Shown here: one piece after another, positions 42,127 to 50,660 of the stretch | Numbering within the stretch: the first letter of the stretch is position 1 | Layout of the letters: each line of letters opens with the position of its first letter | Sequence record: MZ189262.1 | Reading direction: 5' to 3' (one strand) | From: Escherichia phage W143 | Length of the DNA stretch: 64,000 nt | The notes under the pieces: model-generated | Told to the model about the DNA's origin: nothing | The model's input: only the letters and a program-made list of their open reading frames with translations | The model's database searches: none | Position numbers and translations under genes: made by a program

Positions 42127-42474
42127 TTATAGCGTAATCCATTCTCGTATTGTCTGAGTTACTACACGTTCACGAGGTTCGACTAATTCAACAGTCGGAA
42201 CTGCATAATACCAATCAGAATGGTAAGAACCTGAGCGAGATTCATTTACGGAAACATGCACATTATGTTTTGGACTAAAATAAACACACTGACGATATTG
42301 GCATTTGCCGTCTTGCACCCAGTCTTCTATTTCGGCAGGTTTAAGATAATCCGAAAAATCGAAATCATAGTTTTCTGAAAATGCATCATGGTCTTCGATG
42401 ATTTCACTCAGAACTGCATCAACATCGTAAATCATATTTACCCCAATTTGACCATACAATCGCCGTATTTCCAT
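42127..42474 (-). CDS. hypothetical protein
   Basis: 115-aa ORF. Confidence 0.5.
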   Translation of the reverse strand: MEIRRLYGQIGVNMIYDVDAVLSEIIEDHDAFSENYDFDFSDYLKPAEIEDWVQDGKCQYRQCVYFSPKHNVHVSVNESRSGSYHSDWYYAVPTVELVEPRERVVTQTIREWITL

Positions 42475-42914: not shown

Positions 42915-43157
42915 TTATTCCTTAATTCCTAGTACTTGTTTAAAAGTCTCGTCATAATCAAGACTTTGGCCCGTTTGTTCTTTATGTTTGTATATAATAT
43001 CACTTACTTCTGATAGCATATTTTTATATGAACGTGTTAAAGCAGATTTAAGCACGCTGTATCTATCAGGAAATTTACCATGTTCATTATAATACGCTAT
43101 TGCTAATTCACGGACTGCTTTTTCAGCAATCTCCATATATTCTTTACGCTTGGGCAT
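42915..43157 (-). CDS. hypothetical protein
   Basis: 80-aa ORF. Confidence 0.5.
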
Positions 43158-43461
43158 TTTCTTCTCGGTTAAATCTGTGTTTGCAATGACGGCATTTATA
43201 ACGAAGAATATTAGTCTGCCAATGAACTAATTGCACCTGTTCAGTACCACACTTTGGGCAGTTTGGAACATTCTTAGAAGCCCTTTCGCGACGTTCAACC
43301 ATAACCATAATGGCATCCCAGGCTGGAGGTTTAAAGTCTAAATCATCGCAACCATGAATCTTTCCACGCATTTCTAAATCGTCTTCTTCACCAGCCATAA
43401 TAATTTTAATTAGACTGGAATTACTTGAAGCTGCAATATCTTCTAATAGACGCTTTTTCAT
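43144..43461 (-). CDS. zinc-ribbon protein
   Basis: 105-aa ORF with CPKCG...CRHCKH. Confidence 0.5.
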
Positions 43462-44387
43462 TTCAGTACCTCAATAGCATTACGTAAACCATTTGCTTTT
43501 GCATTAAGAGCTTTTAACAATTTGGTGTGTTCAGCAATCTGGGCTTCAACTTCAACTAGTCGAGATTTGAGATATTCACGTTCTTCGCTCAGGTTATCAA
43601 CCTTTTCTACTTTAGGTTCTTTTACATTTGGCTTATATGTATTAGGGTTCTTCAGTTTAATTAGAATGCGTGAACTGCATAACATTGAACCATTATCTTC
43701 GGTTTCGTCATACATTTCCACTACGTCCATAATTTTTAACATCATGCGGAGTTTATAAGACAACGAACGAATAGTTTTGTTGTGCTTATTAATTTCTTTA
43801 GCTGTCATGGTGCCGAGATTACGTGAGTAATAATAAGGAACCTGGATATTAATTAATACTGATGAACCACCTGGCTTGTGTGTTACTTCATCAGCAATAA
43901 CCCAGTCCTTAACATGAACTGTATTTGTACGGTCATCACCCGCGGTAAATAGTTTACGAGCATGCTTAAAAAGCATATTCACTTGGTCATTGAATTGACA
44001 AGCAAATTTATCAGCAAATTTAGTTTCAGGAATGGTAGATAACCAATCAGCCAAATGGGTCTTTTTAACATCGTTAACAATAGTAAATTCAACCAAATCA
44101 GTTATAGATGTCTCAGATTTAATAAAGCTCGGCTTCATAAAGTTTTTAATGTTATCGCGAGCTACAGTAGAAGATAACATACGAGAACGTTTAAACCATT
44201 GAAGCAAATTGCCCAACGAATGAGAATAAGCGTTCTGTGTATCTTTACAGATATGATTTTCCTGGCCAACATATTGAAGGAAATCACGAAGAATATTATT
44301 GATTACTGCTCTGTGTCCGATCTGATAATTACGGTGTTTAGTAATAAGACTATCAAAATAATCAATATAATGTTTACGAGTTTTCAT
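43458..44387 (-). CDS. hypothetical protein with C-terminal coiled coil (array member 1)
   Basis: 309-aa ORF; last ~45 aa heptad-like ([42 protein letters not shown]). Confidence 0.55.
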   Translation of the reverse strand: MKTRKHYIDYFDSLITKHRNYQIGHRAVINNILRDFLQYVGQENHICKDTQNAYSHSLGNLLQWFKRSRMLSSTVARDNIKNFMKPSFIKSETSITDLVEFTIVNDVKKTHLADWLSTIPETKFADKFACQFNDQVNMLFKHARKLFTAGDDRTNTVHVKDWVIADEVTHKPGGSSVLINIQVPYYYSRNLGTMTAKEINKHNKTIRSLSYKLRMMLKIMDVVEMYDETEDNGSMLCSSRILIKLKNPNTYKPNVKEPKVEKVDNLSEEREYLKSRLVEVEAQIAEHTKLLKALNAKANGLRNAIEVLK

Positions 44388-44439
44388 GTTCTTCTCACTT
44401 GATTAATGATTTATACTCCGAGCCATCCTTGGCTTTAAA

Positions 44440-45441
44440 TTACTTAATTAACTGTAAAGCTTGTTCCAGACGATCAAGACGATTAACAGATTCTTCCCAA
44501 ATCCTTTTAGCCTGCTCATATTCTTTCTGCGCTTTATTAGAAATTTCTAGAGCTTCTTTATAAGCTTTTTCTAATGCAATAACTTCTGGACGAATTTCGA
44601 CAGGTTTAGGCGAATCATCAAGATTATCCATTAGTTCCTCAAGTGTAGTTTCTTCTTTAGGAGTATTCACAATTTCATCACATTTTTGTTGGTAAATTTC
44701 TTTATCAGTCGGTGAATAAGCACATTTCACTTCACGAAGACTAACTACAATTTTATATCCTTCCCAACCGCATATATTCTTAAAAGGATAAGTATGAATA
44801 TTTTCTACCGTTTCCATACAAAGTAATGCGGTTTCTAATTGACGAGTTATAGTGCTAGCAATTGAGAAAAATTTATTAATATTCTTTTGGTTAGTTTCTG
44901 GTGTAAAAAATCCATAATTCACAAAAATAGCTACTTTATTTTTATCAAGCTCATATTCTTTTACGATAATCATATCAGAAGCCAAAGGATGAATTTGACG
45001 ATAATCGCCATAACATAATTTAGAAGCTGATTTTAGAATCTGTCCTTTGAAAAGTCTGAAATTACTAATCCAACGACGAGTAAAAATATTCTCAGGGTCT
45101 TCTTTATTATTAAGATGATAAGAATTAACATCACCGAACCAATTATATCCTACTACATCTTTGGTTCGTTTAATTTCTTTCCCAAAATTACCAAGAATAT
45201 CCCGATTAACCAAATATGAAAGAAGACGAGACTCTTTAAAGGTTTTCTTGATAACATCTTTATCTACACGACTAGAAATTTTACGAATTTCATGAATAAA
45301 TTTAGTAGAAGAAACAATACTCGCGTCAACGCTATTGAGCCATTGATTGATAATAGAAATAACGCTATTTTGGCCAAACACCGGTATAGCTTTATCATCA
45401 ATAACACTATTGAATGATTTGATATATTCGTTACGAGTCAT
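44440..45441 (-). CDS. hypothetical protein with C-terminal coiled coil (array member 2)
   Basis: trimmed to MTRNEYIKSF (333 aa) because the track start lies in the promoter; coiled-coil C-terminus. Confidence 0.55.
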   Translation of the reverse strand: MTRNEYIKSFNSVIDDKAIPVFGQNSVISIINQWLNSVDASIVSSTKFIHEIRKISSRVDKDVIKKTFKESRLLSYLVNRDILGNFGKEIKRTKDVVGYNWFGDVNSYHLNNKEDPENIFTRRWISNFRLFKGQILKSASKLCYGDYRQIHPLASDMIIVKEYELDKNKVAIFVNYGFFTPETNQKNINKFFSIASTITRQLETALLCMETVENIHTYPFKNICGWEGYKIVVSLREVKCAYSPTDKEIYQQKCDEIVNTPKEETTLEELMDNLDDSPKPVEIRPEVIALEKAYKEALEISNKAQKEYEQAKRIWEESVNRLDRLEQALQLIK

Positions 45442-45469
45442 ATTAATCTCCTCAGTAGAAAGTAAGAAC

Positions 45470-45499
45470 ATTATACCACATCCTTGTGGCAAAGTAAAC
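45470..45499 (-). promoter_or_regulatory. T4-type early promoter
   Basis: GTTTAC 45499-45494, 18 bp, TATAAT 45475-45470; near-identical to the promoter at 2418-2447. Confidence 0.7.
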
Positions 45500-46515
45500 T
45501 AGTTCAGTGCATTTAGTGCATTGTTCAGTTTAGAACGTTGCTTCGTGAGATTTTTGACTTTTTCTTGAGCTTTTTCTAGCATCTTTTCAGCTTCTAGCAC
45601 TTCATTGGTCGCTTTAACGAGTTCATCATCTACTGCCTTAAGAGACTTCTCAATCGCGTCAGCGTGCCATTTTTCTACAGGTTTAAAATTTGAATTTTCA
45701 GTAGGAAGAAAACTCACTTTATTAAGTTTACATGCATCTATATTGCTTGAGCTATACATCCAAAATTTAGGATTGTTTGATAAGTAATTGGATAAATTTA
45801 AATTTAAGTTATCTTGCACTTCCTGCTTTTTCTCTTGCGTGACTTCGTCCTTTCTCAAAAAATCGTATTTAAATGAAACGATCATATCAAGTTCATATAT
45901 TGTTGTGTCTAATAAACGAGGTAAAATCTTAGACTGAACAGCGGCAACAACATCCATATACTTAAATGCTTCTGTCAACTGTGATTTAAGGCATTCGCAA
46001 ATTGAAAGAGAATTTTTTGTATTAGGTTTAAAGCTAATTCGTGCAGTTCTGTTATTTTCTTTTAATGGTCTTACTTCCATCTGAAGAGTATAACCATCAA
46101 ATTTCAGATTCTTTAAGTTAATATCAGAACCTTTTAATCGACTCGCAGTTGATAAAATTTGCTTTAATTGTCTACGGAACAGAGCAATAAATCTCCATTC
46201 AATACGATAATGATTTGGATTGAAAAATCCAGATGATAAATCGACCTTACTTTGACCAACGCCTTGAACAAATAAAGGATTTTTATAATCAATAGTTTTA
46301 CAGAAATCGGTGAGCTGCTCACGAGCCGTCATTTGTGTAATATATCCCGCTTTACTAAAATTACGCACCCATTCACTGCTATTCGTATACTTAAAGTGAT
46401 GAATAACACGATTAACTTTATCAGGGTCTAAATTATTTTCACACAAAAATGTCATAACATCACGAGTATAACTGGCATTACGAACCATATCTTCAATTTG
46501 AGAACGAGTTTTCAT
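45499..46515 (-). CDS. hypothetical protein with C-terminal coiled coil (array member 3)
   Basis: 338-aa ORF; C-terminal heptad-like region. Confidence 0.55.
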   Translation of the reverse strand: MKTRSQIEDMVRNASYTRDVMTFLCENNLDPDKVNRVIHHFKYTNSSEWVRNFSKAGYITQMTAREQLTDFCKTIDYKNPLFVQGVGQSKVDLSSGFFNPNHYRIEWRFIALFRRQLKQILSTASRLKGSDINLKNLKFDGYTLQMEVRPLKENNRTARISFKPNTKNSLSICECLKSQLTEAFKYMDVVAAVQSKILPRLLDTTIYELDMIVSFKYDFLRKDEVTQEKKQEVQDNLNLNLSNYLSNNPKFWMYSSSNIDACKLNKVSFLPTENSNFKPVEKWHADAIEKSLKAVDDELVKATNEVLEAEKMLEKAQEKVKNLTKQRSKLNNALNALN

Positions 46516-46523
46516 GGTATTCC

Positions 46524-47414
46524 TTAAGATTTAAGTAAATCAACAATTTTAATTAACTTTTCACGCTCAGATTTAGCTTTACTACTCAATCCAGATAGTC
46601 TGAAAATTTCATCGTCATATTGTTGAATAGAAATATTCAGCTCTTCAATCTGCTTATTAAAATAATCAATTTGTTCAGAATGTTTTTCATTACTACGAAC
46701 TGGTACAGGTTTTGCAGGCAATGTAGTTGAACTGGATTCATCCGGGCGATAAATTAAAATACAACTTGAACCAATAGGGCATTTTGCACCAGATGAATAT
46801 TCTAATGTTCCAGCTTCTTTTAAAACTTCAAAAGCTAAACAGAGATGATGTCCCATATTAACATAATCTGTAGAGCGAGCTCTGATGTAATAATCATCTC
46901 CGCGAATACTAAATTTAAAGCATTTAAGGTCTTCTGTATTATTGGTCTTAAAAATCATTTGTTTATCTAGACCTTTAGCTAATCGAGCGCCTAATGCTAA
47001 TAATCGTCGTTGATTTTCCCACAAATCCGCAATCATTTGGTCAAATGATAATTTCGGCATTAGTCGACCATAAAGGTCATATCCTTTATTATAATTACGA
47101 AGGATTTCACTCGCATTAATACGAGACAACGCTCCAATTTTATTAAGGGCTTTCATAATGCGATTAGATAAACTCATTCCAGACCCGTTTGTTCGCTGTA
47201 GATGTTTTTCTAATCCAAATCCAATATCAACTTTAAACTTATCTAAAATTTCGGCATGAACATCTCTGTCAATAACATTCAAATCCAAAGTTGGGTTAAA
47301 TCTATGAAAAAATTTATCTGGCTCTCCACGACGAAATACAGTCCATTCATTCATCATTTTTTTATTAACTAAAGATTTAATTACTGCATTGACATTATTA
47401 ATTACTACTGACAT
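46524..47414 (-). CDS. hypothetical protein with C-terminal coiled coil (array member 4)
   Basis: trimmed to MSVVINNVNAV with GAGGAAAAT Shine-Dalgarno; C-terminal heptad-like region. Confidence 0.55.
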   Translation of the reverse strand: MSVVINNVNAVIKSLVNKKMMNEWTVFRRGEPDKFFHRFNPTLDLNVIDRDVHAEILDKFKVDIGFGLEKHLQRTNGSGMSLSNRIMKALNKIGALSRINASEILRNYNKGYDLYGRLMPKLSFDQMIADLWENQRRLLALGARLAKGLDKQMIFKTNNTEDLKCFKFSIRGDDYYIRARSTDYVNMGHHLCLAFEVLKEAGTLEYSSGAKCPIGSSCILIYRPDESSSTTLPAKPVPVRSNEKHSEQIDYFNKQIEELNISIQQYDDEIFRLSGLSSKAKSEREKLIKIVDLLKS

Positions 47415-47421
47415 ATTTTCC

Positions 47422-47829
47422 TCACTCAATTTCAATTTTACTAAATACACAGAATATGATTGAACAGACTACATAAGCGCCACACACGGATTGAACTAAT
47501 ACCATCCCAAAGAACCAAACAATATTATCAAACAGTGTCTGTTTTACGTCGAAAGGACGTAAACTTACAGTAATATTATCACCTTTTTCTATTGAAGAAT
47601 ACATCTCTGGTGAAATATATTCACTAAATCTATAACCGTCTTTAAGTTCATATACGGCAATAAACGATAAACTAGACCCTTTTCCTTGTGTTCCTGTAAT
47701 GGTATTAACTACAGTAACATCATAATCTTTATAATGCATATAATCATTAATTGCGTAATAACCGTATGCAACTACTACACATAAACAACATATCAATAAA
47801 TTCAATCTTTTAATTATCAACTGTTTCAT
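47422..47829 (-). CDS. membrane protein
   Basis: 135-aa ORF with N- and C-terminal TM segments. Confidence 0.5.
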   Translation of the reverse strand: MKQLIIKRLNLLICCLCVVVAYGYYAINDYMHYKDYDVTVVNTITGTQGKGSSLSFIAVYELKDGYRFSEYISPEMYSSIEKGDNITVSLRPFDVKQTLFDNIVWFFGMVLVQSVCGAYVVCSIIFCVFSKIEIE

Positions 47830-47884
47830 AATAATCTCAATTAAAAGGGCTTAGAACCATTATACCATCCTTGGTATAAAGCGG

Positions 47885-48412
47885 TTATGCGAGTACCGTC
47901 TTTAACCGTTCTTCAAACTTCCGAAGAGTATTTTGGCGTTCAGCTCTTTGCTTTTTGTAAGTTTCAATACGCTCTGAAATGAGAGAGTATCGTTCATTTA
48001 CTGATTCTTTCATAAAATCAGGAATTTCACGAGAAGCTTTAATCTCATCAAATTTATCAATAACAGCTTGTTCTTCAGCAATTAAGTTATCATACATTAA
48101 AATATCTTTCTTGATAAACTCAATATCTTCTTGAGTTACACGAGATAATTTAGATGCTTTATCCTTTTTGTACTGTTCGTTAGTATCACGAGACCAGTGT
48201 AATGTACGATTTTTATTCGTATTCTTGTAAATTTCTACAATACCAATCTCATCGATAATAACGATCCAATTCCAACGGGATTTGTAAATTTGTCCTCCAT
48301 CAACAGTGATTTCACCTCCGATTGAGATGTCGTTAAAGAACTTACTTTGTGCTTCAGATTTAAATTTACCATCGTTGTAATTTACCAGGTTGAAAATATC
48401 TTTAGCGTTCAT
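47885..48412 (-). CDS. hypothetical protein with C-terminal coiled coil (array member 5)
   Basis: 175-aa ORF ending ...YKKQRAERQNTLRKFEERLKTVLA. Confidence 0.55.
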   Translation of the reverse strand: MNAKDIFNLVNYNDGKFKSEAQSKFFNDISIGGEITVDGGQIYKSRWNWIVIIDEIGIVEIYKNTNKNRTLHWSRDTNEQYKKDKASKLSRVTQEDIEFIKKDILMYDNLIAEEQAVIDKFDEIKASREIPDFMKESVNERYSLISERIETYKKQRAERQNTLRKFEERLKTVLA

Positions 48413-48440: not shown

Positions 48441-48470
48441 ATAGTACCACAGAGGAGCAGTCTTGTAAAC
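48441..48470 (-). promoter_or_regulatory. T4-type early promoter
   Basis: GTTTAC 48470-48465, 18 bp, TACTAT. Confidence 0.65.
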
Positions 48471-48857: not shown

Positions 48858-49577
48858 TTAGGATTCTTTTAAATGTCTTTTCTGAAAAGTTGATACCATA
48901 CTACGATACGGTTCATTTGGATACCCGTGTTTTATAGCTTCCTTTGTAAATTTTCTCCATCCATATTTAGTTTCTTTCCAAAGCTCGAATAATTCATCTT
49001 CATACTGCCATATAGTTAAATGAGAACGCTTTGCAGCTTTAATTCCATTAATATGCTTTTCTTTTACTACAGGATTGCTTAGTTTCTTTTTAATAATATT
49101 ACTAACTTTTCTAACAAAAACTGGGTCCTTATATCGTTGCGAAGTTTTTATTGAAGTGTTTAATTTAGCTTCCGGTGTAGATGTGACCTCTTTCATCTTT
49201 TTCTTCATATGCTGTATATGATTAGGATTTTTCCATAAATTTATAGAATGCTTTTTGCATTTTATCCTAGTTTCATCTGCAACCTTTCCTCCTTCACCTC
49301 CGTATGACAGGTTAACACAGTTTTTTCCATATTTCAATTTACCTGCCATGATATATAATATTTCAGCTTGTACCATTTTATCATAATTATCAAAAACTTC
49401 TAAAACCGTTTTTGATAATATGTGGTCATTTGACACTTTTACACGTTCTATATAATTTCCACTACCAACATACGAATCATTGATGTTATTAGTTATATGT
49501 CGACCATAATAGTATTTCTTAATACCTGTCTTTAAATTTAATATTTCAGTTTTATAGATAGTAAAATATTTTTTCAT
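48858..49577 (-). CDS. putative degenerate GIY-YIG (Seg-like) endonuclease
   Basis: 239-aa ORF; N-terminal TIY...(12 aa)...YYG-R resembling GIY-YIG, lysine-rich C-terminal half; weak. Confidence 0.35.
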   Translation of the reverse strand: MKKYFTIYKTEILNLKTGIKKYYYGRHITNNINDSYVGSGNYIERVKVSNDHILSKTVLEVFDNYDKMVQAEILYIMAGKLKYGKNCVNLSYGGEGGKVADETRIKCKKHSINLWKNPNHIQHMKKKMKEVTSTPEAKLNTSIKTSQRYKDPVFVRKVSNIIKKKLSNPVVKEKHINGIKAAKRSHLTIWQYEDELFELWKETKYGWRKFTKEAIKHGYPNEPYRSMVSTFQKRHLKES

Positions 49578-50579: not shown

Positions 50580-50609
50580 ATAGTACCATAAAGCTTTATG
50601 CTTGTAAAC
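50580..50609 (-). promoter_or_regulatory. T4-type early promoter
   Basis: GTTTAC 50609-50604, 18 bp, TACTAT. Confidence 0.65.
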
Positions 50610-50620
50610 CGTTTTGTGAA

Positions 50621-50660
50621 AAAATTTTTGAAATAAAAAAGGGGGACCTCTAGGGCCCCC
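50621..50660 (-). terminator. intrinsic terminator
   Basis: GGGGGACC-TCTA-GGGCCCCC hairpin (one mismatch) followed on the minus strand by UUUUUUAUUU. Confidence 0.6.

Follow-up and report, generated by a model that had tools for sequence, protein, structure and literature searches.

Positions 43458-48412 of a 64,000-nucleotide stretch of Escherichia phage W143 (record MZ189262.1; this whole stretch is called here the window) carry, on the minus strand, a row of early genes that probably forms a fast-evolving tandem array of variable copy number, composed of four whole-length paralogs (nrdC.3, nrdC.4, nrdC.5 and nrdC.6) together with nrdC.7 and the unrelated nrdC.8, and situated in an anti-defence island. 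The paralogy of these genes, their architecture and the variability of their copy number are direct observations. A first-pass annotation of this DNA had described the same region as an array of five genes with unrelated N-terminal domains joined to a common C-terminal coiled coil.

The 6-kb region around the array shares 95-97% identity with many genomes of Tequatrovirus (T4-like phages), the top match being Shigella phage TB004 (96.7%), and the window is by sequence a Tequatrovirus. Comparison of the T4 annotation with the minus-strand open reading frames (ORFs) of the window gave a one-to-one correspondence from nrdC.3 to nrdC.8. The nrdC.3 ortholog (43458-44387, 309 amino acids (aa)), a mosaic protein with a hypervariable central domain, is 60% identical to T4 nrdC.3 and 95% identical to that of phage Manna, and matches PHROG 1435 end to end (E = 3.6e-116). 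The nrdC.4 ortholog (44440-45441, 333 aa counted from ATG; the ORF also opens at an upstream TTG or ATG, giving 350 or 343 aa) is 96% identical to that of T4 and matches the same PHROG end to end (E = 1.2e-168); Pfam PF26897 ('Phage_T4_Y04OP'), present as a precomputed annotation on all nrdC.4 homologs, likewise groups nrdC.3 and nrdC.4. The nrdC.5 ortholog (45499-46515, 338 aa, 93% identical to T4 nrdC.5) matches Pfam PF23882 (DUF7235) with E = 5e-116 and 387.8 bits against a cut-off of 30, its residues 1-338 covering all 307 profile positions (1-307). The nrdC.6 ortholog (46524-47414, 296 aa counted from ATG) is assigned over residues 1-296 to PHROG 2257 (E = 6.6e-152), and its homologs at 98-99% identity carry the precomputed PF26899. 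Finally, nrdC.8 (47885-48412, 175 aa) encodes a small protein of PHROG 2274 whose C-terminal half is helical. The first-pass coordinates and lengths of these five ORFs were exact and the five are indeed present, but nrdC.7 (47422-47829), which encodes a predicted membrane protein of 135 aa between nrdC.6 and nrdC.8 and stands outside the paralog family, lies inside the interval and had been omitted. All five are ordinary conserved nrdC.x orthologs, two of them with published functions, an outcome that tells against the description first given.

To compare the proteins beyond pairwise similarity, family alignments were assembled that combine homologs found in databases with loci of Dhakavirus, Gaprivervirus and Mosigvirus phages. 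The absence of any obvious N-terminal similarity, claimed earlier, holds for most pairs on visual inspection and in BLASTP, which found nothing between nrdC.4, nrdC.5 and nrdC.6, but not for nrdC.3 and nrdC.4, which are related at E = 5e-8 over 230 N-terminal residues and with an hhalign probability of 97.8%. The nrdC.3/4 and nrdC.5 families were in turn aligned by hhalign with a probability of 96.8% (P = 2.1e-10) over 250 columns (68-333 versus 53-338), and when the coil was removed the globular parts still gave 96.3% (P = 1.6e-9), whereas the reversed-sequence controls gave P values of at least 0.037. The joint alignment of the three proteins displays a common start, M-x-TR-x-E-Y-I, two internal motifs, SRxLSxxxARxxLxxFG (motif 1) and ILKxAxKLxxGD (motif 2), the sequence P-E-V-x-A-L-E preceding the coil, and the ending L-x-x-A-[LI]-x-x-[LI]-K. 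A bridging metagenomic protein, P0234, combines an nrdC.4-like N-terminus (PF26897) with an nrdC.5-type tail: its last 60 residues match the nrdC.5-like MN01_122 of phage MN01 with E = 2e-8 by BLASTP, and the nrdC.5 tail is homologous to the tails of both proteins. Judged from these alignments, nrdC.3/4 and nrdC.5 are homologous over almost their whole length, the globular part included.

The relationship of nrdC.6 to this group is more distant. Comparison at the family level by hhalign gave P values of only about 0.01, with a colinear alignment. When trimmed sequences were compared with the joint nrdC.3/4/5 profile, a score of 31.3 was obtained across motifs 1 and 2; the permutation null was 14.1 +/- 2.3 with a maximum of 21.3, and none of the 160 block-permuted versions reached the observed value. 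An earlier joint-profile result for nrdC.6 (P = 1.7e-6) was set aside, being partly carried by columns of the N-terminal extension. AlphaFold2 models of nrdC.4 and nrdC.6, both predicted as single chains, agree in the succession of their elements: the N-terminal part is helical, then come two helices, a beta-hairpin, one more helix and a second beta-hairpin, after which the linker leads to the terminal helix. The aligned motifs lie on helices that correspond between the two models. The nrdC.4 model matches nrdC.6 of phage JS10 in BFVD (E = 3.6e-5), and proteins of phages IME523, PM2, fHyAci03, Acj61, Acj9 and Mineola are matched by both models, with E values from 3e-9 to 1.1e-4 for these six. 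Membership of nrdC.6, the most diverged of the four, in the nrdC.3/4/5 family is thus probable. The profile and structure comparisons together overturn the claim that the N-terminal regions of nrdC.3-6 lack similarity, and the picture of unrelated domains on a common helix fails for these four proteins, given the coil-free alignment of nrdC.3/4 with nrdC.5. As whole-length paralogs, nrdC.3-6 would therefore have inherited the helix along with the remaining protein.

It should be noted that nrdC.6 of the T4 reference genome (NC_000866; locus L001, 11975-12200) is annotated with 275 aa. Compared with the 3' end of the gene in the window (46524-46700), the reference carries a 1-bp deletion (GAGCTGAATATT -> GAGCTG-ATATT) by which the frame is lost just before the coil, and the DNA downstream of the frameshift still encodes the coil. 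Since the T4D annotation (HIDEN-SEQ supplement) holds a full-length nrdC.6 of 891 bp, the frameshift appears to be either strain-specific or a sequencing error.

Other searches gave little. An exhaustive HMMER search of 1.84 billion representatives with the nrdC.3/4 profile recovered 10 clusters and reached neither nrdC.5 nor nrdC.6, so that plain profile-sequence searching does not reveal the relationship. A sequence search of the PDB with nrdC.5, nrdC.8 and the profiles of nrdC.4 and nrdC.6 found nothing below E = 0.09, and NCBIfam and Pfam scans returned, beyond the family models, only sub-threshold matches, none of which was recurrent in the nrdC.6 family. Two matches of nrdC.3, one to Phage_int_SAM/tyrosine recombinases and one to PHL, were dropped because they were present in one of 20 family members.

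The C-terminal helices were scored over the last 45 residues of each protein with a crude heptad scorer of our own (not COILS or Marcoil), using as comparison set the minus-strand ORFs of the window that reach 100 aa, 71 in number. The presence of a heptad helix at the end of all five proteins, as first proposed, is borne out: nrdC.5, nrdC.3, nrdC.8, nrdC.4 and nrdC.6 rank 1, 2, 3, 4 and 6, and nrdC.7, which has no heptad tail, ranks 65. A single unbroken register of 7-8 heptads reaches the C-terminal residue, with hydrophobic residues at 12 of 14 a/d positions in each of nrdC.3, nrdC.4 and nrdC.6 and at 15 of 16 in nrdC.5; nrdC.8, with 9 of 14, has the weakest pattern. Counted from the terminal L-K, the register is identical in nrdC.3, nrdC.4, nrdC.5 and nrdC.6. 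Because the tails are coil-like in their very composition, shuffles that preserve it left only weak significance (p = 0.005 to 0.14).

On the minus strand, the helices are encoded at 43461-43607 for nrdC.3 (aa 261-309) and 45502-45669 for nrdC.5 (aa 283-338), as delimited by register analysis, at 44443-44589 for nrdC.4 (aa 285-333) and 46527-46691 for nrdC.6 (aa 242-296), where AlphaFold2 helices and heptad register were combined, and at 47888-48016 for nrdC.8 (about aa 133-175), where only heptad score and register were used. The nrdC.4 model (predicted local distance difference test, pLDDT, 82.7; predicted template modelling score, pTM, 0.68) is globular up to residue 258, followed by a low-confidence linker (259-284) and a single helix (285-332). 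That of nrdC.6 (pLDDT 76.8, pTM 0.65) has a linker at 223-241 and terminal helices at 242-272 and 278-295, separated by a Gly-containing break at 273-277. In the paralogs, about 230-260 aa form a globular alpha/beta domain, which is followed by a flexible linker rich in Pro, Glu and Lys and of variable length, and by a helix of 7-8 heptads. Members of one family have the tail among their best-conserved segments, while across families it has diverged as far as the remainder of the protein. In the models, the projection of the helices of nrdC.4 and nrdC.6 on a flexible linker fits an oligomerisation or docking element, and to this extent the first-pass proposal of a common oligomerisation or docking helix stands; that of a shared module attached to unrelated domains does not.

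By contrast, nrdC.8 stands apart from the four paralogs. It is about half their length, and hhalign comparisons of its full-length, N-terminal and C-terminal parts with nrdC.3-6 gave P values of 0.035-0.6, no better than those of reversed controls. Its similarity to a 144-aa protein of a divergent phage locus (L005) was not significant either. As far as these comparisons detect, nrdC.8 is a separate protein with a helix of its own and no relation to nrdC.3-6.

The array also varies strongly among T4-like genomes, the copy number ranging from one to four with natural fusions and deletions between paralogs. Tequatrovirus has four copies; among Mosigvirus, phage JK36 has three (nrdC.3-, nrdC.5- and nrdC.6-like) and AV118 two; Dhakavirus and Gaprivervirus carry nrdC.4 and nrdC.6 together with an nrdC.5-like gene; and in a divergent T4-like phage of 168 kb there is just one copy, adjoining the nrdC.2 zinc-ribbon gene. 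Between genera, identity amounts to 20-30% for nrdC.5 and to about 45-50% for nrdC.4 and nrdC.6. At database scale, all nrdC.5 homologs found are at least 76% identical, and structural relatives in BFVD extend to T4-like phages of Enterobacter, Yersinia, Pectobacterium, Acinetobacter, Klebsiella, Erwinia and Serratia, and weakly to Aeromonas. The nrdC.3-6 family is thus very narrow by sequence and wider by structure.

Mosaicism is seen in nrdC.3 even within the genus. Compared with T4, the nrdC.3 of the window (43458-44387) is 80-95% identical at aa 1-60 and 100% identical in the last 9 residues, with 30-55% identity at aa 81-200 and 221-260 and 75% in the block 201-220. The pattern is reversed with Mosigvirus AV118, for which identity is 45-55% at aa 1-40 and then mostly 75-100%, with a 35% block at 161-180. 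These patterns suggest intragenic recombination across genera. Several natural chimeras were also found: in phage Manna (L002, 5215-6252), residues 1-262 of nrdC.6 are joined to residues 251-333 of nrdC.4 at a common QQxxDEI; in CE1 (L009, 601-1557), the start of nrdC.4 is fused to nrdC.3; P0057 is an nrdC.5::nrdC.3 fusion; and nrdC.6 of Sf25 (P0122) contains an internal tandem duplication. The chimeras of adjacent paralogs are deletions at short homologies and not exchanges of modules, and the array is a hotspot of duplication, fusion and loss.

Two of the five genes already have published functions. An evolved T4 clone with genome deletions fails on Dsr1-carrying cells, and expression of T4 nrdC.5 restores infection (Srikant et al., eLife 2022, PMC9391042). 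Bas37_0203 inhibits Druantia III (HIDEN-SEQ, 2025 preprint 10.1101/2025.11.20.689424); according to GenBank MZ501089 and the annotation table of the preprint, bas37_0203 is a 175-aa gene at the nrdC.8 position whose product is identical to that of the window at 173 of 175 residues. On this basis we equate Bas37_0203 with nrdC.8, a name that the preprint does not use. Nearby, nrdC.1 of a related phage inhibits Septu, and gp49.2, a few genes away, inhibits OLD in a related phage (PMC13096335); in the window, nrdC.1 lies at 42915-43157 and the gp49.x region at 42127-42474. As two of the five genes and these two neighbours are published defence inhibitors, the 49.x-nrdC.x stretch is an anti-defence island, and the view that the five genes had no assigned function is out of date. 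That they are early-region accessory genes with no recognisable catalytic motif, also proposed at first, holds for all of them, and in both T4 and Bas37 the array genes are all dispensable on laboratory hosts. A literature search for the mechanism of the anti-Dsr1 and anti-Druantia activities found nothing beyond these two studies.

Other features were noted in and around the array. Matches to a sigma-70-like promoter consensus, and no more than consensus matches, lie on the minus strand upstream of nrdC.4 (45470-45498, TTTACT-17-TATAAT with TG) and upstream of nrdC.8 (48441-48469, TTTACA-17-TACTAT with TG); promoter-like sites in the region are not enriched over shuffles (45 found versus 38.5 +/- 7.1 expected). 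A strong terminator-like hairpin (50642-50660, minus strand, 7 pairs of which 6 are G-C) is followed by a T run and then by a promoter-like site (50580-50608, minus strand) immediately upstream of nrdC.10, which suggests a boundary between transcription units. Between nrdC.9 and nrdC.10, a 239-aa ORF (48858-49577, minus strand) is labelled 'homing endonuclease' in near-identical phage records and had no match at E <= 1e-3 in a Pfam scan; because the corresponding interval of T4 spans only about 100 bp, the ORF is likely to be a mobile insertion in this phage lineage. On the other side, nrdC.2 (43144-43461, 105 aa) encodes a protein with a C-terminal CxxC...CxxC zinc ribbon, whose Pfam matches are sub-threshold (Cas12f TNB and several Zn-ribbon families) and whose gene remains next to the array even in the divergent phage that has one copy (L005, L013). 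In several lineages the paralogs are interspersed with small proteins of predicted membrane location, which differ in position and have no obvious mutual similarity (nrdC.7 in the window; L003, 4855-5043; L004, 4826-5041; L013, 5042-5275 and 5718-5990).

Taken together, these results lead us to a working model for nrdC.3-6. The C-terminal helix would assemble each protein into a homo-oligomer; a homotypic coiled coil is proposed because the sequence of the tail is family-specific and its long heptad pattern is classical. The fast-diverging globular domain would be the specificity element, binding and blocking a host defence protein, and its multivalent display could help to block defence proteins that are oligomeric or large. 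Early expression would allow sensors to be neutralised ahead of the late phage proteins, and duplication followed by divergence may provide each copy with a different target. We thus infer anti-defence roles for nrdC.3, nrdC.4 and nrdC.6, as well as oligomerisation through the helix and direct binding of defence proteins.

Several points weigh against this model. The link of nrdC.6 to the family depends on moderate scores, with hhalign probabilities of 21-38% under a strict choice of columns and Foldseek template modelling (TM) scores of 0.35-0.49. As nrdC.8 does not have the common architecture, 'five genes, one design' is inaccurate. The parts of the HIDEN-SEQ tables consulted list no conditional phenotype for nrdC.3, nrdC.4 or nrdC.6, and our literature search found no experiment tying any of the three to a defence system. 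The effects of NrdC.5 on Dsr1 and of NrdC.8 on Druantia III could be indirect. Lastly, the models are of single chains and the helix could bind something other than itself.

It is possible, if improbable, that the paralogs are real and serve as adaptors in host takeover or regulation, for instance by binding nucleic-acid or protein machinery, whether of the host or of the phage, with the Dsr1 phenotype as an indirect consequence of, for example, changes in the timing or amount of the Dsr1 trigger or in nicotinamide adenine dinucleotide (NAD+) metabolism. The anti-Dsr1 activity of NrdC.5 was indeed established by a complementation assay, the lack of conditional phenotypes just mentioned is in keeping with such a role, and aa 30-86 of nrdC.3 weakly match the SAM-like domain that tyrosine recombinases have at the N-terminus (E = 0.07 in Pfam and 0.0013 in NCBIfam). 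However, this is the match confined to one of 20 family members, four different defence systems have direct or bona fide inhibitors among the neighbouring genes, and fast divergence, mosaicism, changes in copy number and dispensability on laboratory hosts correspond to the profile of counter-defence genes described in PMC9391042.

Rather unlikely, in our view, is a C-terminal helix that does not self-associate and instead binds a partner protein, of the host or a common one of the phage, or packs back onto the globular domain. The monomer models, which leave the helix free, are compatible with any of these options; the Gly-containing break of nrdC.6 could give a helical hairpin, and each of the four families ends in L-x-x-A-[LI]-x-x-[LI]-K. 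Yet an uninterrupted a/d pattern of 7-8 heptads with 12-15 hydrophobic core positions is the classical signature of a coiled coil, and tails whose sequence is specific to each family fit homotypic pairing better than binding to a common partner.

Beyond the working model, one may speculate, with little confidence, that the nrdC.3-6 proteins are oligomeric decoys, in which several tail-terminator-like alpha/beta domains, made early and carried on a coiled-coil stalk, would occupy the sensor domains of defence proteins directed at conserved virion proteins, such as the reported case of the Dsr1 sensor and major capsid proteins (PMC12803255), each paralog being tuned to a different sensor. The reading that fares worst, five unrelated N-terminal modules independently joined to a common oligomerisation or docking helix as a cassette-like modular family, is very improbable and for nrdC.3-6 largely refuted: the blank pairwise BLASTP between nrdC.4, nrdC.5 and nrdC.6, the separate family assignments of nrdC.5, nrdC.6 and nrdC.8 in Pfam and PHROGs, the heptad helix of the truly unrelated nrdC.8 and tail-swapping chimeras such as that of Manna would all suit it, but the coil-free profiles still unite nrdC.3/4 with nrdC.5, nrdC.6 has motifs, element order and structural neighbours in common with nrdC.4, the chimeras are explained by deletions between neighbouring paralogs, and the tails are as diverged between families as the globular parts and conserved only within their own family, where a shared docking helix would be expected to stay conserved across families.

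These genes have long been annotated in T4 and have families in Pfam and PHROGs, and what is added here is modest: the grouping of nrdC.5, nrdC.3/4 and nrdC.6 into a single family of whole-length paralogs whose relatives are spread across Straboviridae, the correspondence of Bas37_0203 to nrdC.8, and the description of the array as a hotspot of duplication, fusion and loss. In an accessory region of T4 such a result is unsurprising. It nevertheless designates nrdC.3, nrdC.4 and nrdC.6 as three concrete candidates for defence-library screens, provides a domain map (globular specificity domain, linker and coil) for the dissection of NrdC.5, and offers an example of how phages may widen their host range by duplication and divergence of inhibitors.

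Among known systems, T4 NrdC.5 (PMC9391042) is the direct reference: the 338-aa protein of the window is its ortholog, with the same locus and DUF7235 assignment, and nrdC.3, nrdC.4 and nrdC.6 of the window are its paralogs with the same architecture. The activity was shown for the T4 allele only, against the Dsr1 of ECOR17, and the window paralogs are 10-25% identical to it. Bas37_0203 shares sequence and locus position with nrdC.8 of the window and is unrelated in sequence to nrdC.3-6. DSAD1, a phage protein that neutralises a defence of the SIR2-type NADase class, resembles NrdC.5 by analogy only: according to PMC10981675 and PMC11087589, a structural protein of the phage switches DSR2 on, and DSAD1 represses it. 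Unlike NrdC.5, DSAD1 belongs to Bacillus phages and acts on DSR2 rather than Dsr1. A 2026 preprint (PMC12803255) reports recognition of major capsid proteins by the Dsr1 sensor, and with this analogy it is plausible that NrdC.5 may pre-emptively occupy the Dsr1 sensor. Phage tail terminator and tail completion proteins (lambda gpU 3fz2, GTA 6tba_4A, 2gjv, SaPI1 9mu2_D and others) are also counted among the closest known systems.

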